Shown here in pieces: positions 39,029-59,100 of a stretch of 64,000 nt of DNA (position 1 is its first letter; each line of letters opens with the position of its first letter). Made by a program: the position numbers and the translations under genes. This DNA is from an uncultured Nitrospiraceae bacterium. GTDB taxonomy: Bacteria; Nitrospirota; Thermodesulfovibrionia; Thermodesulfovibrionales; UBA6898. The notes below the pieces were generated by a model. The model worked only from the letters and a program-made list of their open reading frames with translations. It was not told where the DNA came from and did not search any database. The DNA is taken from positions 800,001-864,000 of the forward strand of contig CAWEQH010000004.1 of assembly GCA_963811165.1 (NCBI GenBank), in the 5' to 3' direction.

Positions 39029-39234
39029 ATTATTTTTTTGAGTATTAGATTAAAAAAAATTCATCATTTCTTAATCGTAATTTAATGTTTCTTCTGTAAT
39101 GTCAATGGGCGACGTTAGAGGTGATGATAATGGAGCAAAGAATAATGAATGCAAAAAGGATGGCTATGTCGCTCAACGAAAGACTGCCAAACTCAGCTTT
39201 AATGTTACTGAGCGAAAATCACAGAGGTATACGC

Positions 39235-40794
39235 ATGTCGATAATTACTTCCGTAATAAGATATACGCAGGTTGTCCCACGTTATCTTTTCGTTGGCCTG
39301 CTCGCGTTTGCCGTCATAACGCTGTCTATTTCTTCTCCGTACGGCGCCTATGGCGCTCAGGCAACATTGACTTGGAACGCTCCAGCCACTAACACTGATG
39401 GGACCCCTCTGACGGACCTCTCAGGCTACAAGATTTACTATGGGACAGCCTCGGGTAATTATTCTCAGACTATTGATGTGGGAGGCATAACGAGTTCAAC
39501 TGTTTCCAATTTGACCGACGGAACTACTTATTATTTTGCAATGACTGCATATGATACATCGGGAAACGAAAGCGCATATTCCAACGAAGTAAGTAAAACA
39601 ACACAAACTGTCCAGCAATATTCTCTGGCGATAACGAAGAGCGGGACCGGCTCAGGCACGGTAACAAGTTCTGCGGGGGGAATAAACTGCGGTACTGCCT
39701 GCACGGCGACGTACAGTCCCGGTTCAGTAGTAACGCTGACGGCCGCGCCTGCAGGCGGGTCGACGTTTACGGGCTGGTCTGGAGGCGGTTGTGCAGGGAC
39801 TGGAACTTGCTCATTGTCGATGAATGGCAATATAGCGGTAACAGCCACCTTTGGGAGTAACACTTACTCCATCACCTCAACGGCAGGGGCAGGAGGAACA
39901 ATATCTCCCTCCGGGACTGTGACCGTGAATGCTGGAACAAGCAAGACATTTACGATTACATCGAATGCAGGCTATCATGTATCAGACGTAAAGGTTGATG
40001 GTGCATCAGTTGGTGCTGTCACGACATATACCCTCAACAATGTAACGGCAAACCATACAATAGCATCGACCTTTGCGGTCACTACCTATATAGTCACTCC
40101 TTCAGCAGGAGCACATGGCAGTATCAGTCCATCGACCGCGAGGACAGTAAATTACAACGGAACTGCATCATTCACAGTGACGCCAAATACTGGATATAAT
40201 ATCGTCTCTGTGACAGGCTGTGGTGGAATGCTATCCGGCAGCACATACACCACCGGCCCCATAACGGCGAATTGTACGGTAACAGCCACCTTTGGGATTA
40301 ACACTTACTCCATCACCTCAACGGCAGGGGCAGGAGGAACAATATCTCCCTCCGGGACTGTGACCGTGAATTCTGGAACAAGCAAGACATTTACGATTGC
40401 TCCCTCTGCCGGTTACTCCATCGGAGCTGTGAAGGTTGATGGTGCATCAGTTGGTGCTGTTGCGACGTATACCTTCAGCAATATAAGTTCCGGTCATACC
40501 ATCTCAGCGACATTCAATCCGGCACAAGTAACATGCGGGAGCCAGCCAGTTAAAGACGGAAATGCATATTATCCTTCTGTCCAGACGGCTTACAATGTTG
40601 CGCAAAATGGGGCCGACCTGCAGATTCTCGCGACGAGTTTAAGTGGAACTCCGAATCTCACTCGCAATATTCAGCTTAGCCTGCAGGGAGGGTATGACTG
40701 CGGATTTAACAGCAGTTCTTTATATTCGACTATCTCGGGGGCGCTGGTTATAAGTGCGGGGAGCGTCACAATTGAGAATATTATTATCATCTGA
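39235..40794 (+). CDS. Secreted FN3 plus InlB-B-repeat-like surface protein with conserved C-terminal domain
   Basis: ORF 39121..40794; ATG 39235 follows GAGG and gives a signal peptide. FN3 motifs LTW, GYKIYYG, YYF..TAYD..GNES; GTGSGTV...FTGWSG repeats. Confidence 0.85.
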   Translation: MSIITSVIRYTQVVPRYLFVGLLAFAVITLSISSPYGAYGAQATLTWNAPATNTDGTPLTDLSGYKIYYGTASGNYSQTIDVGGITSSTVSNLTDGTTYYFAMTAYDTSGNESAYSNEVSKTTQTVQQYSLAITKSGTGSGTVTSSAGGINCGTACTATYSPGSVVTLTAAPAGGSTFTGWSGGGCAGTGTCSLSMNGNIAVTATFGSNTYSITSTAGAGGTISPSGTVTVNAGTSKTFTITSNAGYHVSDVKVDGASVGAVTTYTLNNVTANHTIASTFAVTTYIVTPSAGAHGSISPSTARTVNYNGTASFTVTPNTGYNIVSVTGCGGMLSGSTYTTGPITANCTVTATFGINTYSITSTAGAGGTISPSGTVTVNSGTSKTFTIAPSAGYSIGAVKVDGASVGAVATYTFSNISSGHTISATFNPAQVTCGSQPVKDGNAYYPSVQTAYNVAQNGADLQILATSLSGTPNLTRNIQLSLQGGYDCGFNSSSLYSTISGALVISAGSVTIENIIII

Positions 40795-40957: not shown

Positions 40958-41062
40958 TGTTTCCGAAAAGGTAAACCCCGGATAACCGGGGGGCACAAAG
41001 CCACGGGTCCTTTCCGAGGTCAGCATCAGATGGGAAAGGATGGCCGGGTTGCCGAAGAAGCA
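40958..41062 (+). ncRNA. c-di-GMP-I riboswitch 2 (first of the tandem pair)
   Basis: GGTAAA-CCCCGG-ATAA-CCGGGG-GGCACAAAGCCACGGGTCC...GGATGGCCGGGTTGCCGAA. Confidence 0.88.
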
Positions 41063-41201: not shown

Positions 41202-41293
41202 CACGAAAAAGGCAAACCATCCGAAAGGATGGGACGCAAAGTCACTGGCCTAAGTTCGGACTGTTCCGGATATGGCAGCAGGGCTGCCGGGTG
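41202..41293 (+). ncRNA. c-di-GMP-I riboswitch 3 (second of the tandem pair)
   Basis: GGCAAACCATCC-GAAA-GGATGGGACGCAAAG is nearly the Vc2 consensus; CCTAAG...TATGG tetraloop receptor; P1 CAC/GTG. Confidence 0.93.
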
Positions 41294-41354: not shown

Positions 41355-44273
41355 ATGTCAGCATCAAAGGATCGTCGGAAACATTTGAGCCCACAGTCAC
41401 GTATTTCTCTGGCTGGTATCTTTTCATTTTTAGTTTTTATCGCACTCTTTCTTTATCCCAACAGTGCATTTCCGGGACTGGCTACGCTTACCTGGAACGC
41501 TCCAGCCACTAACACTGATGGGACCCCTCTGACGGACCTCTCAGGCTACAAGATTTACTATGGGACAGCCTCGGGTAATTATTCTCAGACTATTGATGTG
41601 GGAGGTATAACGAGTTCAACTGTTTCCAATTTGACCGACGGAACTACTTATTATTTTGCAGTGACTGCATATGATACATCGGGAAACGAAAGCGCATATT
41701 CCAACGAAGTAAGTAAAACAACACAAGCTGTCCAGCAATATTCTCTGGCGATAACGAAGAGCGGGACCGGCTCAGGCACGGTAACAAGTTCTGCGGGGGG
41801 AATAAACTGCGGTACTGCCTGCACGGCGACGTACAGTCCCGGTTCAGTAGTAACGCTGACGGCCGCGCCTGCAGGCGGGTCGACGTTTACGGGCTGGTCT
41901 GGAGGCGGTTGTGCAGGGACTGGAACTTGCTCATTGTCGATGAATGGCAATATAGCGGTAACAGCCACCTTTGGGATTAACACTTACTCCATCACCTCAA
42001 CGGCAGGGGCAGGAGGAACAATATCTCCCTCCGGGACTGTGACCGTGAATTCTGGAACAAGCAAGACATTTACGATTGCTCCCTCTGCCGGTTACTCCAT
42101 CGGAGATGTGAAGGTTGATGGAACTTCAGTGGGCGCTGTTGCGACATATACCCTCAGCAATGTAACGGCAAACCACGTGATAGCGGCGACCTTTGTGGTC
42201 AATACTTATATAGTTACTCCTTCAGCAGGGGCAAATGGCAGTGTCAGTCCATCGACCGCGATGACGGTAAATTACAACGGAACTGCATCATTCACAGTGA
42301 CGCCAAATACTGGATATAATATCGTCTCTGTGACAGGCTGTGGTGGAATGCTATCCGGCAGCACATACACCACCGGCCTCATAACGGCGAATTGTACGGT
42401 AACAGCCACCTTTGGGATTAACACTTACTCCATCACCGCAACGGCAGGGGCAGGAGGAACAATATCTCCCTCCGGGACCGTGACCGTGAATTCTGGAACA
42501 AGCAAGACATTTACGATTACCCCGAATACCGGCTACTCGATATCTGAGGTGATCGTGGATAGTTTGTCGGCAGGCGCGGTTACATCCTATTCATTCACCA
42601 ATGTAACCGGGAACCACAGTTTATCAGTATCGTTTGCTCCTTTGGATTTTGATGACGATGGTATTTCAGATATAGAAGAGTGGGGACCACAGGGAAATGA
42701 CCCGAACTATGACGGCAATAATGATGGGGTTCCTGACTACCTGCAAAACAGTGTAGCGTCGCTCCACACGGCGGGCAGCAATGACTACATAACTCTCTTT
42801 TCGGCAGATGGATATGCACTTAAGGATGTCATGGCAGAGCCGGTACCTGAGGGAACACCTGTTGGTGCGGAGCTCCCGTATCAGTTCATTAGTTTTACTG
42901 TGGATGAAGTCGCAGCCGGGGCAAGCACAACTGTAGTCGTCAAACTCCCTGATGGTGTTGTGGTCAATGATTACTATAAGTATGGGCCGACACCCGACAA
43001 TCCTGCATTACACTGGTATAGCTTTATGTTCGACGGACAGACTGGTGCCGAAATCTCAGGGAATATTATCACCCTTCACTTTGTAGACGGACTAAGGGGA
43101 GACGATGATCTTATTGCGAATGGACAGATAGTCGACCAGGGAGGTCCCGCAGAGACGCCCGTTGTCGGAGCAACGCCATCCTCCATCGATTTTGGCACAA
43201 CAGCAGTGAACACTACTTCGGTGACGCAAAGTGTGAGTATATCAAACAACGGCCTTGCCCCGCTCATCGTAAGTGCCGTGATGATCACCGGCTCTGATGC
43301 AGGGGACTTCGTGGTTCTTGGGGAGACCTGTTCGTCACAGACTACGGCCTCCGCAGGAACATGCAATGTTAGCGTAGCTTTCGCTCCGCATGCGGCCGGG
43401 AATAAGAACGCATCTCTGACAATTTCCTCGGACGACCCCCGCACGCCGATTCTTGTCATTCCAGTTAGCGGAACGGGAACCATACCTCAGTTTACTCTCT
43501 CCGTAACCAAAACGGGCAATGGAACGGTTTCAAGCAGCACGACAGGTATCATGTGCGGAAGTGCCTGCTCAACCCTCCTAAATGAAGGGACGGTCGCAAT
43601 CTTAACTGCAACTCCTGGGGCGGACTCGATATTCATCGGTTGGTCCGGAGGTGGTTGTGCGGGGACTGGCATTTGCTCATTGTCAATGAATGGCGCTGTA
43701 AGTGTAACGGCCACCTTTGCGGTCAAAACGTACACAATCGCGGCAACGGCAGGTACAGGAGGGACAATATCTCCTTCCGGTGCCGTAACCGCGAATTATG
43801 GAACAAGCAAGACATTTGCGATTACTCCATCTGCCGGTTACTCCATCGGAGATGTGAAGGTTGATGGAACTTCAGTGGGCGCTGTTGCGACGTATACTTT
43901 CAGTAATATCACTGTCAGCCACGCGATCTCTGCTGGCTTTGTGAGCGGGAAAATACCCGCCATCTCCGTATCTCCTGCATCTTACGTCTTCAAGACAACA
44001 AAAGTCGGTTATTCGTCGTCCAAGATATTCAAAATCACAAACATAGGAAAGGCTAATCTTTCGATACTGAAAGTCGAGATTATCGGAACCGATGCGAACG
44101 CGTTCGGTACATCCTTTGCCGGAACAAAGACGCTAAGTCCATCACGGTACTTCTACCAGACAATTAAATTCAGACCGACATCTAAAGGGGTAAAAAATGC
44201 TGTGTTGAGGGTAACCTCGAATGACCCTAAGACCCCAGTCATTGCTGTTCCACTGAGTGGCTCAGGCATATAG
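41355..44273 (+). CDS. Secreted FN3 plus InlB-B-repeat-like protein with Ca-binding DxDxDG motifs and choice-of-anchor U-like and D-like (ASH-type Ig) domains
   Basis: N-half near-identical to the 39235 gene; DFDDDGISD; YYKYGPTP...DGLRGDDD...IVD.GGP; SIDFG...SDDP..P...V.GTG. Confidence 0.85.
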   Translation: MSASKDRRKHLSPQSRISLAGIFSFLVFIALFLYPNSAFPGLATLTWNAPATNTDGTPLTDLSGYKIYYGTASGNYSQTIDVGGITSSTVSNLTDGTTYYFAVTAYDTSGNESAYSNEVSKTTQAVQQYSLAITKSGTGSGTVTSSAGGINCGTACTATYSPGSVVTLTAAPAGGSTFTGWSGGGCAGTGTCSLSMNGNIAVTATFGINTYSITSTAGAGGTISPSGTVTVNSGTSKTFTIAPSAGYSIGDVKVDGTSVGAVATYTLSNVTANHVIAATFVVNTYIVTPSAGANGSVSPSTAMTVNYNGTASFTVTPNTGYNIVSVTGCGGMLSGSTYTTGLITANCTVTATFGINTYSITATAGAGGTISPSGTVTVNSGTSKTFTITPNTGYSISEVIVDSLSAGAVTSYSFTNVTGNHSLSVSFAPLDFDDDGISDIEEWGPQGNDPNYDGNNDGVPDYLQNSVASLHTAGSNDYITLFSADGYALKDVMAEPVPEGTPVGAELPYQFISFTVDEVAAGASTTVVVKLPDGVVVNDYYKYGPTPDNPALHWYSFMFDGQTGAEISGNIITLHFVDGLRGDDDLIANGQIVDQGGPAETPVVGATPSSIDFGTTAVNTTSVTQSVSISNNGLAPLIVSAVMITGSDAGDFVVLGETCSSQTTASAGTCNVSVAFAPHAAGNKNASLTISSDDPRTPILVIPVSGTGTIPQFTLSVTKTGNGTVSSSTTGIMCGSACSTLLNEGTVAILTATPGADSIFIGWSGGGCAGTGICSLSMNGAVSVTATFAVKTYTIAATAGTGGTISPSGAVTANYGTSKTFAITPSAGYSIGDVKVDGTSVGAVATYTFSNITVSHAISAGFVSGKIPAISVSPASYVFKTTKVGYSSSKIFKITNIGKANLSILKVEIIGTDANAFGTSFAGTKTLSPSRYFYQTIKFRPTSKGVKNAVLRVTSNDPKTPVIAVPLSGSGI

Positions 44274-45130: not shown

Positions 45131-46405
45131 TCAGAACTGGTAAGTGAGGCTGACTCCTATCATATGTAAGTCTGTCCTGTATGTTCCATTTGCGGAAGTG
45201 GTAGGGTTCAAGGCACCGTCAAAGGGATTGTCGTCAATGGCATTATTCTTGGATCTGTCTTTCACCTTCTGATATGCATAAGAAATCCCCAAGAGAAATT
45301 TGTTGAAACGGATGTCTGTCCCCATGCAGTAAACCTGAGATTTGCTCGAAGGTACGATGGGGTCGAATGTCTCATCCGGGACGGGATTACCCTCGTAGAT
45401 GTAGCCTGCCATGAAGGCCACAGTGTTATTTACCTGATATCGAGCGCCCATATTAAGGGAGTAAATATCCTTCCACTTCTTGGGATACGTTATTTCCTGA
45501 AATCCGGCAATGGGCAAGTCCGTATTTATGGTGAGCTTGTCATATGAAGACCATCCTTCCCACCTGCCGCCCACTTCGATAGTCAGCGGTGCAAGACCTT
45601 TGTACGCTATACCGAAGTTCGCCGTTGCAGGAAGACTCAGGGTTGTCCGTGCAGCGGTATTTGGGAACATTGATGTCAGTGTTTCCGGAAGCGGGACGGG
45701 GAAGCTGTGCGAGATGTTTCCGTCTATATCTGTCTTGATCCTGCTCCTGAATGCGGCCCCTATCGAGATGTCCTTGGTGACGTCTATGAGCAGCCCGGTA
45801 TTAAAGCCAAGAGCGAAGTCATCTCCCTTGAAGGTCTGCTTCACATCGGGGATGCCGAGGGAACCCAGGTTGAGCATCTTGTTGAGCTCTGCATCGAGGA
45901 AGAGAAATGAAACTCCCGCAGCAAGAGAAATATTCGGAGTAAGCCGGTATGAGACCACAGGGTTCAGGGTGTAAGTAGTCAGAACGGACTTGGTGGCTAT
46001 ATACCTTCCTTCCCAGTCATCAGACCACTTTGTCGCCAGACCGAAGTTGCTGAAGGCGCCGAAACCGACAGATAACTCCCGGGTCATTTTGTAGGTCATA
46101 TAAAGCGTCGAGGGGAAGAACACGTCGTTCGCAGTCTCAAAACTCTTGCCCGAAAAAGAGCTCTGGAACTTGTTATTAGGGATAAGCAGCGTTGTTCCGA
46201 CCTCCAACTGCATTCCGGGGAGGTCATTTATGAGTGCGGGGTTGAAGAATACTGAAGAAGGGTCGTTTGTATGTGCTATCACCGCATTCCCCTGTCCGAG
46301 AGGGGTTGCACCTTGGGTATTTACTGAAAAGCCGGCCCCATAGGCGGCCTCTGCAACAAGCATGAGGACAACTGTCGATAGGAGAATTTGTCGAAGTGGT
46401 CTCAT
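45131..46405 (-). CDS. OmpP1/FadL family outer-membrane transporter for hydrophobic compounds
   Basis: Mature start AGF, NPA motif, FGLATKW, terminal YQF; ATG 46405 follows GGAGGAGG. Confidence 0.92.
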   Translation of the reverse strand: MRPLRQILLSTVVLMLVAEAAYGAGFSVNTQGATPLGQGNAVIAHTNDPSSVFFNPALINDLPGMQLEVGTTLLIPNNKFQSSFSGKSFETANDVFFPSTLYMTYKMTRELSVGFGAFSNFGLATKWSDDWEGRYIATKSVLTTYTLNPVVSYRLTPNISLAAGVSFLFLDAELNKMLNLGSLGIPDVKQTFKGDDFALGFNTGLLIDVTKDISIGAAFRSRIKTDIDGNISHSFPVPLPETLTSMFPNTAARTTLSLPATANFGIAYKGLAPLTIEVGGRWEGWSSYDKLTINTDLPIAGFQEITYPKKWKDIYSLNMGARYQVNNTVAFMAGYIYEGNPVPDETFDPIVPSSKSQVYCMGTDIRFNKFLLGISYAYQKVKDRSKNNAIDDNPFDGALNPTTSANGTYRTDLHMIGVSLTYQF

Positions 46406-46530
46406 CTTACCTCCTCCCTTAGCTTTACTCATCTGTTTTAAGCATTAGTTACCTTTTTGTCAAGGTAAAAGTTATAATCAAATCATTGTGCTCGAAATAA
46501 TACCCACGAGAGGGCAGCCTTCCTGGAACA

Positions 46531-47370
46531 ATGAAGGAATTAAAGAAACGTCGAAATAAGAACCCTGTGGCCAAGACAAATTACCTCATGGAGAACGAAC
46601 GTGAGGCGATAAGGCTGGACGCAAAGACCGATCTTGAACGCGTAAGGGAGCAAGCGCTATGGGCCGGAGTGGAGCCGGGGATGCGGATCGCTGACATCGG
46701 CTGCGGCATTGGGAAGACCACGTTTATGTTGAACGAACTTGTTCAGCCGGGCGGAAAAACAGTGGGCGTTGACTTTTCGGATTCGAGGATAGGCCTTGCG
46801 AGGGAAATGTATCCCTCCCCGACGATATCATATGAGGTAAGAGATGTCCGCGGAGACCTGAGGACCCTTGGGAAGTTCGATTTCATCTGGGTCAGGTTTT
46901 TTCTTGAATACTTTCGAGGAGAAAGTTTCGACATAGTAAAAAATCTTACAGGCATCCTGAAGAAAGGCGGTATACTCTGCCTGATAGACCTTGACTGCAA
47001 CTGCATGAATTTTCACGGGGCGTCTCCTAAGCTCGAATTGACCCTGGCGCGAGTCATGGAAGCCCTTCAGGAGCGCGGGAATTTTGATCCTTTTATCGGA
47101 AGAAAGCTGTACAGCTATCTTTACGACCTGGGGTACGGGAATATTCGGGTAGATGTCTCGTCTCACCATGTCACCTACGGAGAGTTAAGTGATGCAGATG
47201 CACTGAACTGGCTTACCAAGGTTGAGACAATCGCCAGTAAGGGCTATGTGGATCTTTCGGAGTTTGGCGGTGTCAGCGGCTTTATCAAAGAGTTCCGGAA
47301 ATTTCTCGATGACCCGAGGAGGTTTATTTACTCACCCCTAGTTATGTGCGGGGGGGTAAAAAAGATGTGA
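46531..47370 (+). CDS. Class I SAM-dependent methyltransferase
   Basis: YLME..E..RL, ADIGCGIG, GVDFS, FDFIWVRF, LKKGG. Confidence 0.9.
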   Translation: MKELKKRRNKNPVAKTNYLMENEREAIRLDAKTDLERVREQALWAGVEPGMRIADIGCGIGKTTFMLNELVQPGGKTVGVDFSDSRIGLAREMYPSPTISYEVRDVRGDLRTLGKFDFIWVRFFLEYFRGESFDIVKNLTGILKKGGILCLIDLDCNCMNFHGASPKLELTLARVMEALQERGNFDPFIGRKLYSYLYDLGYGNIRVDVSSHHVTYGELSDADALNWLTKVETIASKGYVDLSEFGGVSGFIKEFRKFLDDPRRFIYSPLVMCGGVKKM

Positions 47371-49353
47371 AGGGATAGGTATAGGTGTTTGTGAGCCGGA
47401 ATCCAAGAGGTTGCCGATATTTTTGTTGCAGTACCTTATAAACGCGTCGATCACTTCAGGATCCAGATGCGTCCCCCTTATGTCCAGGAGGATCTTGAAT
47501 GCAACGTCGAGGGGCATAGCTTCCCTGTAATGGCGCTTGGACGTTATCGCCTCGAAGTAGTCGGCAACGGCTATAATCCTTGAGCCCAACGGGATGGCGT
47601 CTTCCCGGAGTCCTCGCGGATAACCTGTGCCGTCCCATTTTTCGTGATGGCATCCGACGATAATCGGGACCTGCTTGTAAATCCCTTCGAAGTTGATCTT
47701 CTCAAGTATCTGCTGAGTCTTTATCGCGTGGGTTTTTATCTCCTCAAACTCCATTTTGTCGAGCGGCCCCTGTTTCTTGAGAACCGAATCCCTGATGCCT
47801 ATCTTGCCGTAGTCATGGAGCAGGGCTGCGACGCGGATCATCTCCGTAAATTCCTTGTTCATGTCGAGCTCTTGACAGATTCCTATAGCGAATTTGGTAA
47901 CCCGTTCCGAGTGGCCGGCGGTCATGAAGTCCCTTGCGTCGATAGTTGCCGCAAGGGTTTGGATGATAGACCTGAATTGCTGCTCCTTGTTCTCAAAGAG
48001 CATGGTGGTATGCATGCTGACGGCTATCTCCGGCATGATGGTCATGAGAAGGGTGAGGTCGCTTTGGAGCAATGGCCTCTTGGAACGTATGTTGTCCACT
48101 GCGATAATGCCGAGGGACTGCTTCTCGTAGACGACAGGACAGCAGATGAAAGACTTTGCTCCCATTTTTTTTGCGAACTCGATGCTGTATGGTGAGAGAT
48201 CGTCCGTGATTGACTCCACATCGTCGATGAGGAGCGGTTTCTGGTCTTTGAAGGAGACGACAAATGCCCCTTTGGAACTTGTCTTGTTTAGGTGAAACTG
48301 GGTCTTCTTCAAGAAGGAATACTGCTCTGGGGTATAACCAAACCCGGAGTGGAAGACCAGTGTGGTCCTCTCCTTGTTCGGAAGCAAGATAAGCCCCCGG
48401 TCATAGTCGAGCCGGTTCTGGAACGCCTGAATGACTTCGCGGAAGATATCGTCGAGATCGCTCTTTTTGTTGAAGGCGAGTCCGAGTTCGTATATGAGAA
48501 GACTGTCGTTATGTCTGGAGTTGAGCTGGTCCAGGAGTTTATCGGACGAGTCCTGAAGGTTCGACAGGGCCGCATTCAGTTCGTTGTTTTCGAGACGCTT
48601 CACGTATATGGTGATGAGGAAAAGCGCCAGTATAAAAAAAGGAAGGAGGATTGCTATAGCAATGTCCCGGTGGCCGCTAAACGTGACAAGACCGAAGAGA
48701 ATGAGGAGAAAGATCGTAAAATAGGTCCTGACGTTCTTCCACAGTGCGGAGTAAGACTCTTGCCACGTTACAATGTATTTGCATGATGAGCCCCCCCTGA
48801 ACATGCATTCAGGATGTTCAATGGCAGGGAAACGGTAGTTGAATGCTTTTGCGAGGGCCTCAAGGTGGCCCACCCTGTTTTCGCACTGAAAAGCCTTCTC
48901 TTTGACGTCCGTATGAGGGGTGACTGTTATTTCGACCCTATGCTTTCCTATCCTCTTTGCGACGTAGTCGGAAGATTTCGTGAAGAAGGATGAGAATTTA
49001 CCGATCAGTTCATAAGCTCTGCCCGGTCCCACGAGCCCAAGTATATACTGTCTTATGAAGCCAAGAGAATCCGCCGATGCAGCAAATCTTCCGGCCTCCC
49101 GTGCAATGTCCTTGTTGCCGGTCTTCTTCAAGATCTCTTCATAGAACTTGTCCACCTCTTCCTGCGTAAACCAGTGCCCCTGGTCTGCAACCTGGTAAGG
49201 CTTTATGCCCGAATTGGAAAGGATTTCGTTTGCGTCGATGAGAGGGTACCTCTGCCCTAAGTACTTGATGAATGTGTCTATGATGCGGCTGCTGTATAAA
49301 GGCCTTTCAGTCATGGCTGTCCTTTCCAGTATGCCCATGCCTCCATGAACCAA
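47338..49353 (-). CDS. Membrane HD-GYP phosphodiesterase with N-terminal V4R/H-NOX-like domain, two TMs and a GAF domain
   Basis: QCEN..G...EHPEC...G...CKY..W; TM hairpin; GHSERV, HDYGKIG, HHEKWDGTGYP. Confidence 0.88.
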   Translation of the reverse strand: MVHGGMGILERTAMTERPLYSSRIIDTFIKYLGQRYPLIDANEILSNSGIKPYQVADQGHWFTQEEVDKFYEEILKKTGNKDIAREAGRFAASADSLGFIRQYILGLVGPGRAYELIGKFSSFFTKSSDYVAKRIGKHRVEITVTPHTDVKEKAFQCENRVGHLEALAKAFNYRFPAIEHPECMFRGGSSCKYIVTWQESYSALWKNVRTYFTIFLLILFGLVTFSGHRDIAIAILLPFFILALFLITIYVKRLENNELNAALSNLQDSSDKLLDQLNSRHNDSLLIYELGLAFNKKSDLDDIFREVIQAFQNRLDYDRGLILLPNKERTTLVFHSGFGYTPEQYSFLKKTQFHLNKTSSKGAFVVSFKDQKPLLIDDVESITDDLSPYSIEFAKKMGAKSFICCPVVYEKQSLGIIAVDNIRSKRPLLQSDLTLLMTIMPEIAVSMHTTMLFENKEQQFRSIIQTLAATIDARDFMTAGHSERVTKFAIGICQELDMNKEFTEMIRVAALLHDYGKIGIRDSVLKKQGPLDKMEFEEIKTHAIKTQQILEKINFEGIYKQVPIIVGCHHEKWDGTGYPRGLREDAIPLGSRIIAVADYFEAITSKRHYREAMPLDVAFKILLDIRGTHLDPEVIDAFIRYCNKNIGNLLDSGSQTPIPIPSHLFYPPAHN

Positions 49354-49409
49354 GAGCGCCGGAGAATGTTATGTCTGAGAGTATTTGCCTCATGGTCACC
49401 GTCTCCCCA

Positions 49410-51452
49410 TTATTCCCCTCTTACGAGGTGCGAAACGAAGTCTAGATAGTGGTCTCCTGTCTCATGCACATTAAATGACCAGAGCCTGTAAATCTTGTCG
49501 TTTCGCAATGCAACCTTTTCGGCATATGACGTGGGGTAAACGAGGATGGGGATCTCATGCTCTGCGTAATTCTGAACAACTCTATTGCAGGCTGACTGAA
49601 AATAGTCGAGGGGGAGATTGTTACCGTCAAGAATGAAGACCGTGACACAGTTTGTGAGGTTCGACATGTTCAGGCCGAAATCAGATACGTTCGCTATGAA
49701 GACCGCCTTAAGGCTCTTACCCTTCTTCAGTGAGTATAAGTGGCGGTCTCTCTTCATCCCATTTTTTTCGTATATGCCTTTTATCGGCATATCTAAAGGG
49801 GGGGTAGGTTCGAGTTCAAAGGCCGTAGTCATAAGTCCTCCCGATACGTAAGAGTAATAATCCTCCAGCTCGAACAAGTCAGACGCCGTGGAAGGCTCCA
49901 GCGTCATGGAAGCCGGCAGGGAAGGAAGATGCTGGTTTTTCCTAAAGAGGAGGTGCGCAAAGTCGTCAAGTGAGCAGAGTTTTGGGTTTGCGAGGCGCCT
50001 TGCGTAGCCGCCGAAGACGCGGTCCGGGAAATGATTACCAGGCCGGAAATAACAGATGACATATTGCATATGGGACGAATACATGTTATGGACGTCGTTG
50101 ATGTAACGGCCGACCTGATTGAGAACGACGAGTCCTGCTTTTCTTATGCCGAAGGATGCGTGATGGTGGATGAGCCATGTGTTCTCGAAGAAACGTATCA
50201 TTGCGATGTGACCTTGTATCTGTCCCTTGTCCCGGTACATAAAATGGCGGGCTATGTCGGGGCTGTCGAGATAGAGTTTCCTGTAAGTCTCCTTTAACGT
50301 ATCCATGTTCTGATGTATGGAACAGTATTTTTTTGGATAGATGAAACCGGTCTTGAAAAAAAACTTCCAGAGTTCGTCGACGTCTACCCGGGTGCACACA
50401 TAGGAGTTCATGTTCGTGACTTGATGCAGGATGCTGGCGACGAGGATCTGGCTTGCGGGGTCCATGTCGAGAATAGCAATACCGCAATATATGACTGTAT
50501 TGGAGGAAGCCGGAGAGGATGCATCAGAGACAACGCGTTGGGTTATTACCTGGGCCCTGCAGCTTACCTTGACCCCGTATGCAAACTCAACGTCCAAATG
50601 CGGCAGTATCATGCCGGGAACGAGGGTAGCGGACTCGTAGCACTCAGTGACGGAAAACCCCGCCCCGGACATCTCGTCTATCTTAAGCGATACGGTTTTT
50701 CCGCTGAACGGGTGCACGAATATGATGTTGGGAGAGGGGTGGAGTCGATGTCTGGGGCTCCTGTGTGTCTTCGGCTTAAATCGATAAAGATGGTGATTGA
50801 CAGGCTCAAGGACAAAGGTCCTTTCTTTGATCCCTTCGTTGTGCCGTATTACACGGCACTCTCCTGAGTACAGGAGTTCCCCCCCTTTTTTGATGAAGAC
50901 CGTGATCGCAATTTCTGGCGCGATATATTTGAATGACTGGAAGTTTCCCAAAGACATGCCGGCTGAAAAAGAGAAGGCGCTGAAGTCATTAAGTCTTCCT
51001 TTAAAAAAGAGGCCGTTTTGCACCATTTCGACGTCGATCCCTTGGCAGGGATAACGCTCCGCCTTTCTCACCGTGACATCCGCTCCAACGACCTTGCTCA
51101 TGTCGAAACTTATACTTTTTTCATCTATGTCAACGAGATCGGGCTTCAACGAGAATATGCTCTTGCCTGCGGCTACAAGAACGCCCTGGAACACATAAGA
51201 ACTGCTCCTTTCCTTCAGCATCCCCTGGTCCTTCCAGGAGAGATGCAGATAGTCCTCATGACAGGGGAATGGGAATGCTTCGACGGTCACGGTAGTATTA
51301 TATTGCACATGCTTGAATACGGCGTAAACGGCTCTACCCTGGAAATGAAGATAGTTGATCGCGTTGACGATGCGGGCCTTGCTCAATTCGGCTTTTCTGG
51401 CAACGTGGCAAGACGCGTCCATTTCTGGTTTGGTGTGCAGTCCTTCTTCCAC
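49410..51452 (-). CDS. Tandem PilZ-domain protein with putative GNAT-like C-terminal region
   Basis: RKAER...DFSAFS and RSPRH...EMSGAG PilZ-like motifs; alpha/beta C-terminal half (GHIAMIRFFENTWLIHH, ICYFRP.N.FP). Confidence 0.65.
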   Translation of the reverse strand: MEEGLHTKPEMDASCHVARKAELSKARIVNAINYLHFQGRAVYAVFKHVQYNTTVTVEAFPFPCHEDYLHLSWKDQGMLKERSSSYVFQGVLVAAGKSIFSLKPDLVDIDEKSISFDMSKVVGADVTVRKAERYPCQGIDVEMVQNGLFFKGRLNDFSAFSFSAGMSLGNFQSFKYIAPEIAITVFIKKGGELLYSGECRVIRHNEGIKERTFVLEPVNHHLYRFKPKTHRSPRHRLHPSPNIIFVHPFSGKTVSLKIDEMSGAGFSVTECYESATLVPGMILPHLDVEFAYGVKVSCRAQVITQRVVSDASSPASSNTVIYCGIAILDMDPASQILVASILHQVTNMNSYVCTRVDVDELWKFFFKTGFIYPKKYCSIHQNMDTLKETYRKLYLDSPDIARHFMYRDKGQIQGHIAMIRFFENTWLIHHHASFGIRKAGLVVLNQVGRYINDVHNMYSSHMQYVICYFRPGNHFPDRVFGGYARRLANPKLCSLDDFAHLLFRKNQHLPSLPASMTLEPSTASDLFELEDYYSYVSGGLMTTAFELEPTPPLDMPIKGIYEKNGMKRDRHLYSLKKGKSLKAVFIANVSDFGLNMSNLTNCVTVFILDGNNLPLDYFQSACNRVVQNYAEHEIPILVYPTSYAEKVALRNDKIYRLWSFNVHETGDHYLDFVSHLVRGE

Positions 51453-51715: not shown

Positions 51716-54205
51716 CTATCTCCGTAACAAAACCAGCTTCTCAAACTCATCACTGGGGAGCGGCTTACCCAATAGGTATCCCTGCATCTCATCACATCCA
51801 CTGGAATGCAGAAACGTTAGCTGATCATCAGTTTCAACTCCCTCCGCAACCACTTCCAAATTCATTGTGTGTGCCACTGCAATCATAGCATTCACTATGG
51901 CTTGGTGGGTAAGGTCGGCTTTGAGTTCTTTGATAAAAGACTTGTCAATCTTAAGTTTCTGAACATGTAATCTCTTGAGAGAACTTAAGCATGAATACCC
52001 TAAGCCGAAGTTATCTACGGAAATTCCAATACCGATATCAGCCAGTCTGGTGAGGTTGGCAATGGTAAATTCAATATTTTGCATAACAGCGCTTTCGCTG
52101 ATATCGAGTTCGAGCAGTTCAGGGGCCAAACCTGTCTCTTCCAATATCCGAGAAATCATTTTCACGAGATTCGACTTCTGGAACTGTCGCGTGGAGAGGT
52201 TTATCGTCATACGAATAGGCTTGTATCCTGATTCCTGCCACGCCCTGGCTTGGACACAGGCAGTGCGCAGCACCCACTCATCGATATAAGTAATTACCCC
52301 TATCTTTTCGGCTACTGGAAGGAATTTTGACGGACTGAGCAATCCCAGTTCCGGATGTCGCCAGCGCACGAGTGCCTCCGCACAGAGTATCTGGCGGGAA
52401 CCTACGTTTAACTGCGGTTGATAATGAAGAACCAGTTCTCCGCACTCTATCATCCGGCGCAAATCGTTTTCTAGTAGCATCCTTTCAAGGGTTCTGACAT
52501 TTACGGCCGAACTGTGGAATTGATAGTTATTCCTGCCCTGTCCCTTTGCATGATACATTGCAATATCGGCATTTTTGAGCAGTGTTTCGGCGTTTTCGCC
52601 GTCATTCGGACAGATACTGATGCCAATACTGGCAGTGACGTAGAGCTCCTGGTTTTCAATCTTGAAGGGCCCTTTAAAAATTGACATGATTTTTTTTGCA
52701 ATCGGGACCGCATCATCAGGATAAGAAATATCCGCCAGCAGTATATTGAATTCATCGCCTCCGATACGGGCAATGGTATCGGTTTCACGCATACATGTTT
52801 TCAGTCTGCCTGCAACTTCCTTGAGCAATTTATCGCCTATCGAATGTCCGAGTGTGTCATTAATACTCTTAAAATTGTCGAGGTCCAAAAACATTACCGC
52901 AAGCATCTTGCGATTTCGGCGTGTCTCCGCCAGTTCAAGAGTAAGATGGTCCATAAAGAGCATCCTGTTTGGCAAATCGGTCAGGGGATCGTGTAATGCC
53001 TGAAATCTCATTGCCTCTTCTACTCTTTTCCGCTCCGTAATTTCCTGCAGCACGACATTAATGCCGAGCAGTCCCTGAGCCTCGTCTCTGACGGGGTAAA
53101 AATATGCCAGCCAATCACGCGTGATCCCCGGCTGAGCGTGCGTTGTGCCATGGATCTCCAGTCCTTCCACCGGCTCTCCAGTTTCTATTACACTCCGTAA
53201 GGACGGCTCGCAGAGGTCTGCGAATGAGGGTGCCGCTTCGCGTACTGAGCGGCCAAGGTGCTCGTCGACCGACAAACCACTCATTTCTGCGAATTTCTCG
53301 TTGACGCTTACGTATCGGAGGGCGGTATCCATAAAGCACAGACCGGTCGGCGCTGTCGTATAAATGACTTGCAGCTCTGCCAGACGGGTGCGAGAGAGTT
53401 CCTCACTTTTGCGCAATGCTCCCTCTGCTCGTTTACGCTCGGTAATATCGCGAAAGTAGGTTTCCAGACGGTCATGACTGGGAAAGGCGTGTGTCTCAAA
53501 CCATCTATCGGCCGCACTGAAGTAAGCTTCCGTGTGTACGGGTCTCCTCGCCGAAGCTGCCATTTGATACTGCTGATAAAACTCGGTACCAACGACCTCG
53601 GGGCATTCCTCCCATAAGACCTTTCCGATAAGTTCTTTTGCAGGCCTGCTGAATAACTTCTCGGCCACTTGGTTGATTTCCAAAAAGCGCCACTGGTAGT
53701 CCAGCGCAAAATATGCATCTGTAATGCCGTTTAGTATGTCGCTTAGCCTTTCACTGGTGCTCTGTAAAGCTCCCTCTGTTCGTTTGAACTCGGCCATATC
53801 GTGGGCGATCAGCGAAACTCCGATGATTTCACCGACAGCGTCTTTAATGGGAGACGCGCTGAGAGAAATCCTGATTGGCCTGCCGTCTCTTCTCATACCT
53901 ACTGTTTCATAATGCGTTACACTCTCTCCCCTCGCAGCTTTCGAAAGTATAGGGGGTATCTCATCGCGATGGGCAGGAGAGACAAGGAGGGAGATAGGGC
54001 GACTGAGTATCTCTTCTGCCGAATAACCATAGATTTTTTCGGCGCCCGGGCTCCAGGTCGTAAGGGTGCCATCTGCTCTCGCACTGATTATCGCATTATC
54101 CAGCGATGTCACAACTGCCTCTAACCAGGCATGTGCTTTCTCCGCCCGCTCGCACCTGAATTTTATTGCTTCAAGATTCTTGAGTTGTTGTAGCATCTCT
54201 TTCAT
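51716..54205 (-). CDS. Three PAS domains plus GGDEF and EAL domains
   Basis: Three PAS/PAC units; DPLTDLPNR, RIGGDEF, EALVRW, AEGVET, QGY. Confidence 0.93.
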   Translation of the reverse strand: MKEMLQQLKNLEAIKFRCERAEKAHAWLEAVVTSLDNAIISARADGTLTTWSPGAEKIYGYSAEEILSRPISLLVSPAHRDEIPPILSKAARGESVTHYETVGMRRDGRPIRISLSASPIKDAVGEIIGVSLIAHDMAEFKRTEGALQSTSERLSDILNGITDAYFALDYQWRFLEINQVAEKLFSRPAKELIGKVLWEECPEVVGTEFYQQYQMAASARRPVHTEAYFSAADRWFETHAFPSHDRLETYFRDITERKRAEGALRKSEELSRTRLAELQVIYTTAPTGLCFMDTALRYVSVNEKFAEMSGLSVDEHLGRSVREAAPSFADLCEPSLRSVIETGEPVEGLEIHGTTHAQPGITRDWLAYFYPVRDEAQGLLGINVVLQEITERKRVEEAMRFQALHDPLTDLPNRMLFMDHLTLELAETRRNRKMLAVMFLDLDNFKSINDTLGHSIGDKLLKEVAGRLKTCMRETDTIARIGGDEFNILLADISYPDDAVPIAKKIMSIFKGPFKIENQELYVTASIGISICPNDGENAETLLKNADIAMYHAKGQGRNNYQFHSSAVNVRTLERMLLENDLRRMIECGELVLHYQPQLNVGSRQILCAEALVRWRHPELGLLSPSKFLPVAEKIGVITYIDEWVLRTACVQARAWQESGYKPIRMTINLSTRQFQKSNLVKMISRILEETGLAPELLELDISESAVMQNIEFTIANLTRLADIGIGISVDNFGLGYSCLSSLKRLHVQKLKIDKSFIKELKADLTHQAIVNAMIAVAHTMNLEVVAEGVETDDQLTFLHSSGCDEMQGYLLGKPLPSDEFEKLVLLRR

Positions 54206-54633: not shown

Positions 54634-56180
54634 TTACACTCCTCCACCCAGCACCTTATAAAGTGTCACCAAATTGATCAGCCGGGAAAGGCGAACCGTA
54701 ATCAGCCCCTGCTGCGCACTGTAAAGAGAGCGCTGCGAGTCCAGGACATTCAGGTAGCTTGCTATGCCATTTTGGTAGCGGGCCTGCGATAAACGGTAGC
54801 TTACGGCGGTGGCATCCGTCAGAGATTGCTGAGCCTCCAGTTGATCGCCAAGGGTGCCACGTTGCGCAAGGGCATCGGCAACTTCCCTGAAGGCGCTCTG
54901 GATCGCCTTCTCATACTGGGCAAGGAAGATTTCACGGTCGACTTCCGTCACTTTCAGATTGGCCCGGTTTCGCCCTGCATCGAAGATCGGCAGGGTAATT
55001 TGCGGTGCAAAGCTCCATGTGCCAGCTCCTCCCTTAAAGAGTCCGGACAGCTGATCGCTTGAGAGACCGATGCTCGTCGTGAGGGTGATGCTCGGGAAGA
55101 ACGCCGCACGTGCCGCGCCGATATTGGCGTTGGCAGCTTTAAGAAGGTGCTCTGACTGCATGATGTCAGGGCGGCGTTGCAGCACGTCCGACGGCAGACC
55201 CGCGCTGAGTTCTTTCAATGCGGTAATCGGACTGAGCCCAGACGGCAGGAGATCAGCTGGCACCGGCGAGCCGATCACCAGCGCCAGCGCGTTTTCGTCC
55301 TGGGCCACCTGGCTTGTGAAGCGGGCAATATCCACCCTGGCCGAATCGACACTGGTCTGGGCCTGACGGAGATCAAGCTCCGAGGAGGCCCCGGCTTCGA
55401 ATCGGCGCTTGATAAGGTTGTATGAAGACTTCTGGCTCTCGAACGTGTCTTGAGCAATTTTCAGGTGCTCTTTATCGGCGGCAAGGGTCAGGTAGTTGCT
55501 TGCGACCTCGGCCACCAAGCTTATCTGCATACTGCGGCGTGCCTCCTCAGTCGCGAAAAACTCCTCCAGCGCCTGGTCTTTAAGGCTCCGCACGCGACCG
55601 AAAAGATCGAGCTCGTAGGCGCTGAACCCGAGGCCGACACTGTATTGATGCACTCTCATGGACTGTCCTGTAGCCGAGAGAGGCTCGCGGGCACCCGCTG
55701 TTCGATTCCGCTGCCGGCTGCGTTCACTGTTGGAAAGAGATCGGCGCGCTGGATTTGATACAGCGCCTGCGACCTTTCGATATTGAGTGCGGCTATTCGC
55801 AGGTCGCGGTTATTTTCAAGTGCAAGGGAGATCAGCTTTTGCAGCTGTTTGATCGATAAAGAACTCCTGCCATTTGATGTCGGCAGCAGCTCTGATCGCC
55901 AGGCTTTGCTGCGTCGCCTTGTAAGCGGGCCGCTCGGCCATTCGGACGGAACAGGCGCTGCCGGCCGCGTATATTTGGGGGCCATGCTCGCGCAGCTGGA
56001 GAGGACAAGCAAGGCAATCGCAGCGGCTGCACCACGGAGATGGTTTGTCATTCCGGCTTGCCTGTGCCCGATGTTTGGGTATCCGGAATCTTTATTCGGA
56101 AGAATTCCCGACGCGCTACGCCTGCGGGAAGGACAGCTAATAAAGTATTTCATTGCACTGTTACTCGATCGTCTTTTCAT
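54634..56180 (-). CDS. OprM/NodT family outer-membrane efflux lipoprotein (frameshifted as assembled)
   Basis: Lipobox [31 protein letters not shown]. Split over ORFs 55656..56246 and 54634..55659. ATG 56180 follows GGAGG. Confidence 0.85.
56046..56135. repeat. 90-bp REP/REPIN/RPE-like palindromic element
   Basis: Ends TGTCATTCC...GGAAGGACA (inverted, one mismatch) enclosing two hairpins, TTCCGG...CCGGAA and TTCCCG...CGGGAA. Confidence 0.65.
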
Positions 56181-56181
56181 A

Positions 56182-59100
56182 TTACTGTTCCTCCGCAGAA
56201 TTGCCAACAGCAGACGCTGCGTGCGGTTTATATTTTCCCCGGCCAAACAGCCGTGACACCATCACAAAGAAAAATGGAATAAAGATCAGGTCGATAAAGG
56301 TGGCCGACAAGCAGCCCGCCGGTAACGGCGGTGCCGATGGCGTTCTGGGCTCCGGCCCCCGCGCCCCTGGTAAGGGCCAGCGGCAATGTGCCGAAAAAGA
56401 AAGCCAGTGATGTCATGATGACCGGCCGCAGCCGGATCTTCACCGCCGTCAGGGTGGCCTCGACCAGTTCATGCCCCTGATGCATCTGTGCCTTGATGAA
56501 TTGAATGATCAGTATGGCGTTCTTGGTGGAAAGTCCAATGGTGGTGAGCAAGCCGATCTGGAGATAGATATCGTCGGGCAACACCCGAAGCGTCACCGCC
56601 GTCACCGCGCCCACCAGACCCAGCGGCAGCATCAGCAGGTTGACAAAGGGGATGGTCCAGCTCTCATACAGTGCAGCCACGGCGAGAAACACCACCAACA
56701 GCGAAATGGCGTAGAGGGCCGGGGCCTGGGCTCCGGCATGTTTCTCCTCGTAGGAGAGGCCGGTCCACTCGTAGCCGATCCCCAGCCGGCAGCTGGGCCG
56801 CCATCTTCTCCATCTCGGCCATCGCCTCGCCGGTGCTGACCCCCGGCGCCGCCTGTCCCTGGATTTCCACGGAAGGAATGCCGTTGTAACGTTCGAGGCG
56901 GGGTGAAGCGTACTGCCAGCGGGCGGTGGAAAAGGCCGAAAACGGCACCATATCACCGCTGCTGTTGCGGACGTACCAGTTGTTGATATCCTCCGGCACC
57001 ATCCGGTATCTGGCATCGGCCTGGAGATAGACCTTTTTGACCCGGCCGTTCTGGATGAAGTCGTTGACGTAGGAGCCACCCCAGGCGGTGGCCAGCACGC
57101 TGTTGACATCAGCCACGGATACCCCCATGGCGCCGGCCCTCACGTCGTCTATGTCGAGCTTGAACTGGGGGGTGTCGTCCTGGCCGTTGGGTCGCACGGC
57201 AATCAGTTTTGGGTTTTTCATGGCCATGCCCAGGAGCTGGTTGCGCGCCTCCATCAACTTTGTCGTGGCCCAGACCGTTGCGGTCCTGCAGTTCCATGTC
57301 GAAGCCGTTGGCAAAACCCAGCTCGATCACCGCCGGCGGTGCGAAGGCGAAGGCCATCCCGTCCCGGAACTTCGAGAAGGCCTGCATGGCCCGGGCGGCA
57401 ATGGCCGGGGCTTTCAAGTCCGGCGTCTTTGCGCAGCTTCCAGTCCTTGAATTTCACAAAGGCCAGACCCATGTTCTGGCCGCGGCCGGCAAAGCTGAAC
57501 CCGGTCACGGTGATTACCCCCTCCACCGTTTTCTTCTCATCTTCCATAAAATGTTTTTCCAGCTGCCTGATGACCTTGATAGTCCTTTCCGTCGTGGCCC
57601 CGGGCGGCAGCTGGACCTGGCAGATGATGAACCCCTGGTCCTCATCCGGGAGGAAGGCGGTGGGGAGCCGCAGGAACAAGAATACCATCGCGCAAACCAG
57701 GGCGACGTATACCACCAGAAAGCGCATCGGTCGGCCGAAGGAGCTACCGACAATGCCTTCATACTTGCTCCTAAAGAAATCGAACAACTTGTTAAACCGT
57801 CTGAAGAACCAGGTGAACCAGCCTGACTTACCTGTATGATCGCCCTTTGCCACCGGCTTAAGCAGGGTGGCGCAGAGGGCCGGAGTCAGGATCATGGCTA
57901 CCAGCACGGAAAGGATCATGGCGGCGATAATGGTGACCGAGAACTGCCGGTAGATGACCCCGGTGGAACCGCTGAAGAAGGCCATTGGCAAAAAGACCGC
58001 TGTCAAGACGGTGGCGATGCCCCAGAGGGCGCTGGTAATCTGCCCCATGGACTTGAGGGTGGCGTCATGGGGCGATAGCCCCTCCTCGGACATGATTCGT
58101 TCCACGTTCTCGACGACGACTATGGCATCATCCACCAGGAGACCAATGACAATCACCAGGGCGAACATGGTCAGAGTGTTGATGGAGAAACCGGTGGCCG
58201 ACAGAACCCCCATGGTCCCCAGCAAAACCACCGGCACCGCGATGGTGGGAATCAGGGTCGCCCGGAATTTCTGGAGGAAAAGGAACATGATGATGAAGAC
58301 CAGGCAGACTGCCTCCACCAGGGTCTGGACCACCTCCTCGATGGAGATCTTTACGAAGGGGGTGGTGTCGTAAGGGTAGACCACCTCCATGCCGGCGGGG
58401 AAGTATTTTCCCAACTCCGCCATCTTGGCCTTGATCCGGTTGCCGGTTTCGAGGGCGTTGGCGCCGGCGGCCAGCCGGATGGCCATGCCGCCCATCGGTT
58501 TGCCCTGGTAGAAGGACTGGATGTCATAGTTCTCGGTGCCGATTTTGGTTTCGGCGACATCCTTGAGCTTCACCGTCGAACCGTCGGGGTTGGTACGAAG
58601 GATGATGTTGTCGAACTGTTCCGGGGTCTGCAGCAGGGTGCGGGCGGTGATGGTGGCGTTTAGTTGCTGCCCCTGAACGGCCGGGGTGGCGCCGAACTGA
58701 CCGGCCGAGACCTGGGCGTTCTGGGCCTGGATCGCATTGACCACGTCTGTGGAGGTCAACCGGTAGTTGTTTAGCTTGGCGGAGTCCAGCCAGATCCGCA
58801 TGGCGTTCTGGGTGCCGAACAATTGCAGTTCTCCCACCCCTTCCAACCGGCTGATGATGTCCTGAATGTTGGAGACCATGTAGTCGGTCAGTGCGTTGCG
58901 GTCCATGGACCCGTCCTGCGACACCAGGCCGACGATCAGGAGGAAGTTGCGGGTGGATTTGACCACCTGGATGCCCTGCCGCTGCACCACCTGGGGCAGA
59001 AGCGGGATAGCCAGCTGTAGCTTGTTCTGCACCTGGACCTGGGCGATGTTCGGGTCTGTCCCTGCCAGGAAGGTCAGACTGATGGAAACCGCCCCAGCCG

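Follow-up and report, generated by a model that had tools for sequence, protein, structure and literature searches.

A Tandem GNAT Protein, a Methyltransferase and a Heme-less H-NOX-Fold Receptor Form a Conserved Candidate Signaling Cassette in Anaerobic Bacteria

Gene Organization of the Locus

An uncultured Nitrospiraceae bacterium (Thermodesulfovibrionales; GenBank assembly GCA_963811165.1) carries four adjoining genes for which we propose a role in chemical signaling. They lie at positions 45131-51452 of a 64,000-nucleotide stretch of contig CAWEQH010000004.1 (positions 800,001-864,000 of the forward strand; hereafter the window). They encode an outer-membrane channel of the FadL/TodX family, a class I S-adenosylmethionine (SAM) methyltransferase (MT), a membrane receptor with an HD-GYP output domain, and a protein in which a PilZ-like region precedes two GNAT folds in tandem (hereafter the GNAT protein). 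An earlier note on this DNA, written by a model from the nucleotide sequence alone, had read these genes as a quorum-sensing-like loop around a diffusible lipid. We find a real, conserved and undescribed signaling cassette: GNAT protein, MT and receptor are linked across phyla and at low sequence identity, the receptor occurs with swapped outputs, and the FadL lineage is tied to membrane sensors. The cassette is conserved in many anaerobic bacteria, anammox bacteria included. Its anatomy is well supported; its function we infer. No description of it was found in the open literature, a body of text that excludes subscription papers and bioRxiv supplements.

The hub of the cassette is the gene for the 680-residue GNAT protein (49410-51452, minus strand). 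Next in its direction of transcription comes the gene for the 671-residue receptor (47338-49353, minus strand), followed by the MT gene (46531-47370, plus strand; Pfam Methyltransf_25, E value 2e-11), which is identified also by its invariant residues and its co-occurrence with the GNAT gene, and by the FadL gene (45131-46432, minus strand; Pfam PF03349, Toluene_X, E 6e-63). Inspection of the open reading frames showed all four to be intact. The tight packing described in the earlier note is real, but the MT gene points the other way: it diverges from FadL across a gap of 98 bp and converges on the HD-GYP gene with an overlap of 33 bp. Since the genes are not co-oriented, they must form three transcription units, and a single four-gene operon is ruled out. 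A scan for promoters and terminators gave counts at chance level (8 vs 8.3 and 8 vs 7.2). Every cassette gene is single-copy in its own genome, where a second FadL is merely 21% identical, and the nearest named homologues belong to Thermodesulfovibrionales. The same four-gene layout recurs in G013, G019, G280 and G322, in G269 with a broken FadL gene, and in G209, where FadL is cut by the contig end. In G013 (L129 7141-9188) the PilZ-GNAT gene is interrupted by a TAG stop just within the GNAT part.

The Tandem GNAT Protein

Our searches found 844 homologues of the GNAT protein, and no match in Pfam or NCBIfam. After 50% clustering the GNAT family comprises 1344 representatives up to an E value of 0.001, and 422 up to 1e-30. 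A model of the C-terminal half (residues 346-680; 49413-50417, minus strand), computed with a 79-sequence alignment as input, has a predicted local distance difference test score (pLDDT) of 92.5 and contains two α/β domains, predicted to be two GNAT folds in tandem. Foldseek placed tandem GNATs at the top (E 5e-10). A wide structural search returned histidine acetyltransferase first (Z score 12.2), and a second search returned the complex of histidine acetyltransferase with N-myristoyl-histidine (Z 13.2, root-mean-square deviation (rmsd) 4.3, 260 aligned residues, 11% identity). These VIA scores (Z 12.2-13.2) are over 256-260 residues. The best fold match of the model is thus an amino-acid N-acyltransferase, which we count in favor of an acyl-amide product. 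His430, at the end of strand 4 in the first GNAT domain, is conserved throughout the alignment (40 core, 39 stand-alone and 4 distant sequences), which makes it a candidate catalytic residue. Other conserved features of this half are GF[IL]YPxK, N473 and GxNxSxLxN.

The earlier assignment of this half as acyltransferase-like with a GNAT fold holds, in tandem form; kinship with LuxI or FeeM is not supported. The protein has a tandem rather than a single domain, and the Pfam FeeM profile (PF21926) found no match among 79 scanned family members or in the bacterium's own genome; the profile did match in two of five genomes and in one control. FeeM and acyl-homoserine lactone (AHL) synthases are not among the fold matches listed for the C-terminal half, a listing that need not contain every match. 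A search with the PF00765 profile gave no matches anywhere, controls included. Sequence searches of the PDB with the full protein or its C-terminal half returned nothing, and an Atlas search yielded no more than clusters without names and, below threshold, an Acetyltransf_1 lead. Profile comparison of the two GNAT halves detected no internal repeat.

The family extends beyond the cassette. The GNAT protein is encoded in named records of both Ca. Kuenenia and Ca. Brocadia, the receptor in those of Ca. Brocadia. Streptomyces (S. noursei and others; P0418, P0419, P0422 and P0423) has tandem GNAT homologues of the stand-alone kind; a plasmid search found no match for the window protein or for a Streptomyces homologue. 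In P0251 and P0278 (approximately 1210 residues) NERD and protein kinase domains precede the PilZ-GNAT unit in a fusion. At L105, L106 and L113, where MT and receptor are missing, the gene after PilZ-GNAT is a small one with a STAS domain (Pfam assignment checked for L105 and L106).

The N-terminal half (PilZ-like region, 50418-51395, minus strand) had been described as a double PilZ, which our data bear out in part. Pfam PilZ matches one segment weakly in all four homologues tested (E 1e-8 to 8e-4) and strongly in distant members, but the full canonical motif pair is found in neither segment. In the window protein, R129xxxR133 lacks the Gly of the second motif, and R231xxR234 is accompanied by E260-x-S262-x-x-G265, with Glu at a position where most homologues have Asp or Asn. 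Among 123 homologues, segment 2 has RxxxR in 105 and the full [DN]xSxxG in 8; segment 3 has [DN]xSxxG in 97 and RxxxR in a single case, with RxxR instead in 95%. Profile comparison between the segments of this half found no internal repeat. Binding of cyclic di-GMP (c-di-GMP) by this region is plausible from its motifs. The region is dispensable in some lineages, since PilZ-less versions of the GNAT protein exist (hhalign probability 99.7 over 277 columns), one of which sits within an MT > GNAT > receptor-kinase operon in G102. An essential c-di-GMP gate, as the earlier note supposed, is difficult to reconcile with PilZ-less versions in the same operon.

The H-NOX-Fold Receptor

The receptor consists of a sensor domain (residues 14-200; 48754-49314, minus strand), two predicted transmembrane (TM) helices that form a hairpin (residues 208-249; 48607-48732, minus strand), a coiled linker, a GAF domain (E 3e-12) and an HD-GYP domain (residues 468-634; 47452-47952, minus strand; Pfam HD_5, E 3e-39). 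The sensor had been taken for a V4R-like domain. Its model (pLDDT 90.7) instead resembles a full-length H-NOX domain: the match to Shewanella oneidensis H-NOX (4u99) has Z 17.4 and rmsd 2.5 over 171 aligned residues, whereas the V4R proteins DmpR and PoxR rank far lower (Z 8.2). A separate fold search supports the H-NOX fold with a TM-score of about 0.7. The ligand-bound N-domain of VirS lies between them (Z 14.0). The fold family binds hydrophobic ligands, as seen in the VirS N-domain with its bound compounds.

Across 65 sequences, four residues of the sensor (C157, H180, C183 and C191) never vary; two distant members have Glu at position 180. They form a predicted zinc-type Cys3His site in which Cys, His/Glu, Cys and Cys stand at the spacing conserved in V4R and H-NOX domains. 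Two invariant glycines, G88 and G162, match the hinge of S. oneidensis H-NOX. The zinc site of that protein comprises Cys139, His161, Cys164 and Cys172 (PMC7108781), and the spacing of the Cys and His residues in our sensor matches it. The proximal heme His, on the other hand, has no counterpart. His102 of the Tt protein aligns near S121, where His occurs in 1% of the sequences (a weak alignment, E 0.8); no column between 73 and 163 has His above 14%, and the alignment contains no YxSxR motif. A role as heme or nitric oxide sensor is therefore rejected.

The same site could also be read as that of a heme-free zinc-thiol redox sensor like the H-NOX of Vibrio cholerae, with the enzyme genes as co-regulated passengers or targets. 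Cysteine oxidation can signal without heme in S. oneidensis H-NOX (PMC7108781), the four zinc ligands and the hinge glycines match the spacing of that protein, and the hosts are anaerobes. Even so, we consider a redox sensor highly improbable: it leaves unexplained how closely MT and receptor track the GNAT protein, and at the zinc-type site the distant members replace His with Glu, as V4R ligand sensors do. In those ligand sensors the zinc is structural.

A hydropathy scan assigned one TM helix to 84 and two to 30 of 114 receptor sequences, the first helix being marginal. Because there is no N-terminal hydrophobic segment, sensor and output are both predicted to be cytoplasmic. The HD-GYP domain has D472, H481, H513-D514, H542, H569-H570-E571, G577-Y578-P579, D598 and R607; the HD, HxxxT, HHE, GYP, RxxxxxD and RxY motifs and the N-terminal acidic residue are all present and 90-100% conserved among 113 homologues. 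The roles of these motifs follow bioRxiv 2021.11.05.467447, a preprint in whose text the term V4R does not occur. The prediction that the sensor would be fused to varied outputs is borne out: the 23 longer receptors picked for domain scanning comprise 12 histidine kinases, 7 HD-GYP variants (3 with an extra PilZ domain) and 4 class III cyclases.

Linkage of GNAT Protein, Methyltransferase and Receptor

We assembled 95 GNAT loci (11 from genomes, 4 from relatives and 80 from metagenomes; the window itself and one duplicate were left out). A receptor gene accompanies the GNAT gene in 70 of them, MT in 49 and FadL in 12; where at least 5 kb of downstream sequence was available (48 loci), these counts are 44, 37 and 8. 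Search profiles for GNAT, receptor and MT were built from the same 95 loci and applied, as a reverse test, to 121 Desulfobacteria genomes, many of them fragmented. GNAT was found in 39, the receptor in 33 and MT in 20 of these genomes. All 20 MT genomes contain GNAT, 15 of them within 10 kb; 30 of the 33 receptor genomes contain GNAT, 24 of these 30 within 10 kb. In the genomes searched, the MT family occurs exclusively alongside the tandem GNAT, and a pairing of MT with sensor was never seen in the Desulfobacteria without GNAT. Several receptors are present in 12 of the 30 GNAT-receptor genomes, and three genomes hold receptors with no GNAT found, which resemble orphan receptors. Fisher P values overstate these associations because the genomes are kin. 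With this caveat, co-occurrence far exceeds chance, and chance adjacency of the genes is rejected. The co-occurrence predicted in the earlier note is hence confirmed for GNAT, MT and receptor, in Desulfobacteria as well as in the 95 loci. Pairwise distances also correlate (Spearman 0.5-0.65 for GNAT, sensor and MT in 50 loci; 0.8-0.9 for FadL in 17 loci), but since kin share distances, we do not use them as evidence of co-evolution. Within its own phylum the GNAT gene was found in 8 of 201 genomes, and in none of seven congeners, so its distribution is patchy.

The association persists at low similarity. In G789 and G907 a distant GNAT (approximately 130 bits), MT (approximately 140 bits) and sensor (approximately 48 bits) are still together, with B12 radical SAM and short-chain dehydrogenase/reductase (SDR) genes. 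Across the 95 loci, B12 radical SAM genes recur in 14, enolase-family enzymes in 7, and N-type ATP pyrophosphatases recur as well; one hydrolase fusion is among the tailoring variants. A core that stays constant while the small-molecule enzymes around it vary suggests tailoring of a metabolite.

Small molecules could be dispensed with altogether if the GNAT protein were a c-di-GMP effector of the PixB kind with a protein as its acylation target, and MT methylated a protein such as the receptor in a CheR-like adaptation. PixB combines two PilZ domains with a GNAT and acts on motility (PMC8316039), the protein acyltransferases NMT and VipF are among the fold matches of the C-terminal half, and GNAT and receptor genes often adjoin. 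We regard this explanation as improbable. It leaves the radical SAM enzymes, the enolase family, the hydrolase, SDR, the FadL lineage and the thioesterase-MT analogue described below unexplained, and two Desulfobacteria genomes contain MT and GNAT with no sensor detected.

The FadL Lineage and Analogous Modules

The channel is a full-length match to Pfam PF03349 (213 bits vs a cut-off of 29.7), which supports its earlier description as an outer-membrane channel of the hydrophobic-ligand family. Against the NCBIfam FadL equivalog, its score of 106 misses the cut-off of 585. Translation likely starts at Met10 (position 46405), which is invariant in the alignment. The earlier note had counted FadL as a core part, whereas it occurs in one of the 39 GNAT-bearing Desulfobacteria. 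We conclude that FadL is optional yet not incidental. The cassette FadL stays linked in three different arrangements, and its lineage is present in 10 of 251 Planctomycetota genomes, among them every one of the 9 that have a close GNAT (genomes closely related to one another, one of which had contributed to the profile).

Three profile searches yielded six sister FadLs outside cassettes, which are all such cases found; five adjoin membrane histidine kinases and the sixth lies within 3 kb of one. Four of them (L160, L161, L162 and L163, all Desulfobacteria) form a FadL > MASE11 histidine kinase pair with no adjacent synthase. The conservation of this pair suggests a lipophilic ligand for MASE11. 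In G308 (L119 278-10008) a sister FadL diverges from fabF > methyltransferase > HisKA_7TM kinase > REC-PAS kinase, an arrangement reminiscent of Phc. In G559 (L164 9649-17813) FadL follows a B12 radical SAM gene, a 1075-residue fusion of PilZ, LuxD-like acyl thioesterase and MT, and a receptor with five TM helices and kinase-REC-GGDEF-EAL output. The genes flanking this module match those beside the G517 and G369 cassettes at 57-87% identity, and the FadLs match at 63-65%; synthase and receptor of G559 have no match to those of the two cassettes. A shared neighborhood and FadL with unrelated synthase and receptor indicate the same logic built from unrelated parts, and the chemistry of acyl release and methylation points to a lipid. 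We note the G559 genes as a candidate lipid-signal module analogous to the cassette. A quick tree has the kinase-linked FadLs branching at three places from within those of the cassettes, so they represent three independent cases rather than six. The idea of a lipid signal gains from this FadL lineage beside membrane sensors and from the analogous thioesterase-MT module.

These data also bear on the possibility that the product never leaves the cell, being an N-acylated, methylated and radical-SAM-tailored aminolipid that resides in the membrane and is read in the inner membrane by the tethered sensor, with no cell-to-cell signal. The sensor is predicted to be cytoplasmic and membrane-anchored, and most loci lack FadL. 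The best named structural relatives of MT by sequence are phosphoethanolamine N-methyltransferases (E 4e-11), and the B12 radical SAM neighbors score weakly against hopanoid and lipid methylases. The MT match is, however, of a kind that any SAM-binding core would give. The FadL lineage goes with sensors and has been retained through rearrangements, and orphan and multiple receptors occur. We judge a membrane-resident lipid unlikely, though less so than modification of a protein.

Comparison with Known Systems

In one of the closest known systems, c-di-GMP breakdown can run through RpfG, an HD-GYP protein. The diffusible signal factors (DSF/BDSF; RpfF with RpfR or RpfC-RpfG) likewise combine a fatty-acyl signal synthase with a receptor that drives c-di-GMP breakdown (PMC13220807). 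Their synthase is a crotonase and their receptor domain is PAS, in contrast to the tandem GNAT and the H-NOX fold of the cassette, which adds MT, the PilZ-like region and FadL. The Ralstonia Phc system (PhcB, phcBSRQ; methyl esters of 3-hydroxypalmitate and 3-hydroxymyristate, 3-OH-PAME/MAME) places a SAM methyltransferase beside a membrane sensor and employs a methylated lipid signal such as we presume for the cassette (PMC13220807). The constant gene of the cassette is GNAT, not MT, and our MT is likened to PhcB by description only.

Nas343 and Nas354 also fuse a second-messenger-binding domain to a GNAT-fold enzyme. They are FeeM-type N-acyl amino acid synthases fused to PilZ, which were shown to make N-acyltyrosine and proposed to be under c-di-GMP control; NasP, as cited in the same work, is activated by cyclic AMP (PMC4897644). 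In each, a single FeeM domain, with Glu as catalytic residue, precedes one PilZ domain, and no linked receptor is described in the available part of that paper. In the cassette, a tandem GNAT with a conserved His and no FeeM profile match comes after the PilZ-like region. PixB of Myxococcus xanthus resembles the GNAT protein, by description, in that PilZ domains are fused to a GNAT part, which works in growth without PilZ and so parallels our PilZ-less versions. It differs by its one recognized GNAT domain and by RxxxR in both PilZ domains, and the accessible text names no MT, H-NOX-fold receptor or FadL with it (PMC8316039).

Oxazolone synthesis by TrzAS/OxzAB pairs an amino-acid N-acyltransferase with a tailoring enzyme, trzAS adjoins c-di-GMP turnover genes, and a signaling role was proposed (PMC12856293; bioRxiv 2020.06.11.147165). 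These systems differ in acyltransferase architecture and in their ThiF-nitroreductase, of which the cassette has none. This enzyme family cyclizes N-acyl amino acids (PMC12856293). In G395 (L148 1315-5806) the gene for a distant PilZ-tandem GNAT (probability 96.3) and a ThiF-nitroreductase gene of the oxazolone synthase family (Rv1355c family, 768 bits) overlap stop-to-stop. Finally, the H-NOX proteins of S. oneidensis (SO2144) and V. cholerae share with our sensor the fold, the Cys3His zinc-type site, the glycine hinge and the control of kinases and c-di-GMP enzymes (PMC7108781). The cassette sensor lacks the proximal heme His and YxSxR, and it is joined to its output through a TM hairpin and GAF. 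Since the cassette proteins fail the tests for the FeeM profile, H-NOX heme and the canonical PilZ motif, we file the cassette under none of these systems. In anammox bacteria, where a review credits AHLs to HdtS-type enzymes (PMC13188143), it would be a separate channel.

Genomic Surroundings

Two paralogous surface-protein genes with fn3, InlB-like repeats and choice-of-anchor D/U domains adjoin the cassette (39121-40794 and 41355-44273). They are preceded by three c-di-GMP-I riboswitches on the plus strand (38859-38950, 40961-41057 and 41202-41292), two of them in tandem, which make up three of the six in the genome. All three have G at the position where it favors c-di-GMP over cyclic GMP-AMP (cGAMP). 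It is plausible that these surface proteins, behind their riboswitches, are the local output of the cassette in its own genome; they were not seen as conserved neighbors. The window from 108 to 38615 contains two IPT/TIG repeat proteins of very large size (2059 and 2336 residues), a polysaccharide gene cluster of low GC content and a GAF-GGDEF cyclase gene (34919-36949), and a PAS-GGDEF-EAL gene lies at 51716-54205, so that the region looks like a biofilm island. At 54634-59350 (minus strand), genes for a resistance-nodulation-division (RND) efflux pump and an outer-membrane factor appear split over several frames; these frameshifts may be real or assembly errors.

Proposed Mechanism and Significance

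We lean slightly toward the view that the cassette comprises an acyl-amide signal synthase, a tailoring enzyme, a channel and a receptor, and operates as a quorum-sensing-like circuit akin to DSF or Phc with unrelated parts. In this circuit the tandem GNAT would synthesize an acyl amide, probably an N-acylated amino acid or amine, for MT to methylate. The product would leave the cell, crossing the outer membrane through FadL where FadL is present, and would enter the emptied heme pocket of the H-NOX-fold domain of the receptor. The glycine hinge could then switch the HD-GYP phosphodiesterase, probably by activation that lowers c-di-GMP, as the analogy with RpfR and RpfG suggests. Through the PilZ-like region c-di-GMP might in turn feed back on synthesis, which would close the loop in the HD-GYP versions. 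This tuning of synthesis by c-di-GMP is the weakest step, and we consider the arguments for and against it about evenly balanced.

Several observations weigh against this circuit. Sugar, protein and antibiotic acetyltransferases lie within 1-2 Z units of the top fold match, and the matches are at 7-13% identity, so the fold of the C-terminal half does not single out a substrate. GNATs bind the acyl-coenzyme A pyrophosphate with a loop of the type R/Q-x-x-G-x-G/A. The C-terminal half lacks this canonical loop, which is reduced to A439-G440 (65% and 95% conserved, respectively, among 123 homologues). Gating by c-di-GMP is weakened by the non-canonical PilZ motifs, neither segment having RxxxR together with [DN]xSxxG, and many receptors output to kinases or cyclases rather than to c-di-GMP. 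Among the Desulfobacteria, 19 of the 39 GNAT genomes lack MT and 7 lack both MT and sensor. FadL is missing from all but 12 of the 95 loci and all but one of those 39 genomes, while four close FadLs occur in Desulfobacteria genomes without GNAT. No fatty-acid synthesis gene recurs as a neighbor in the 95 loci. The link to ThiF-nitroreductase is a single independent case, with one close relative in 151 genomes.

More tentatively, and below the confidence that we place in the circuit itself, the cassette may represent an undescribed class of cell-to-cell signaling in anaerobes such as sulfate reducers, syntrophs, Nitrospirota and anammox bacteria. In this class, a tandem GNAT tuned by c-di-GMP would produce an acyl-amide signal, with MT and B12 radical SAM enzymes setting its "dialect". 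A heme-less H-NOX receptor would be wired to phosphodiesterases, kinases or cyclases, and one FadL lineage would serve as a shared lipid-signal channel across interchangeable synthase-receptor modules. If this is true, bacterial chemical signaling would gain a synthase family and a receptor domain, each new and neither matched above cut-off by a Pfam or NCBIfam family, and the H-NOX fold would be used for an organic ligand within a membrane receptor. The cassette offers a concrete, cloneable candidate for signaling among granule- and biofilm-forming anaerobes.

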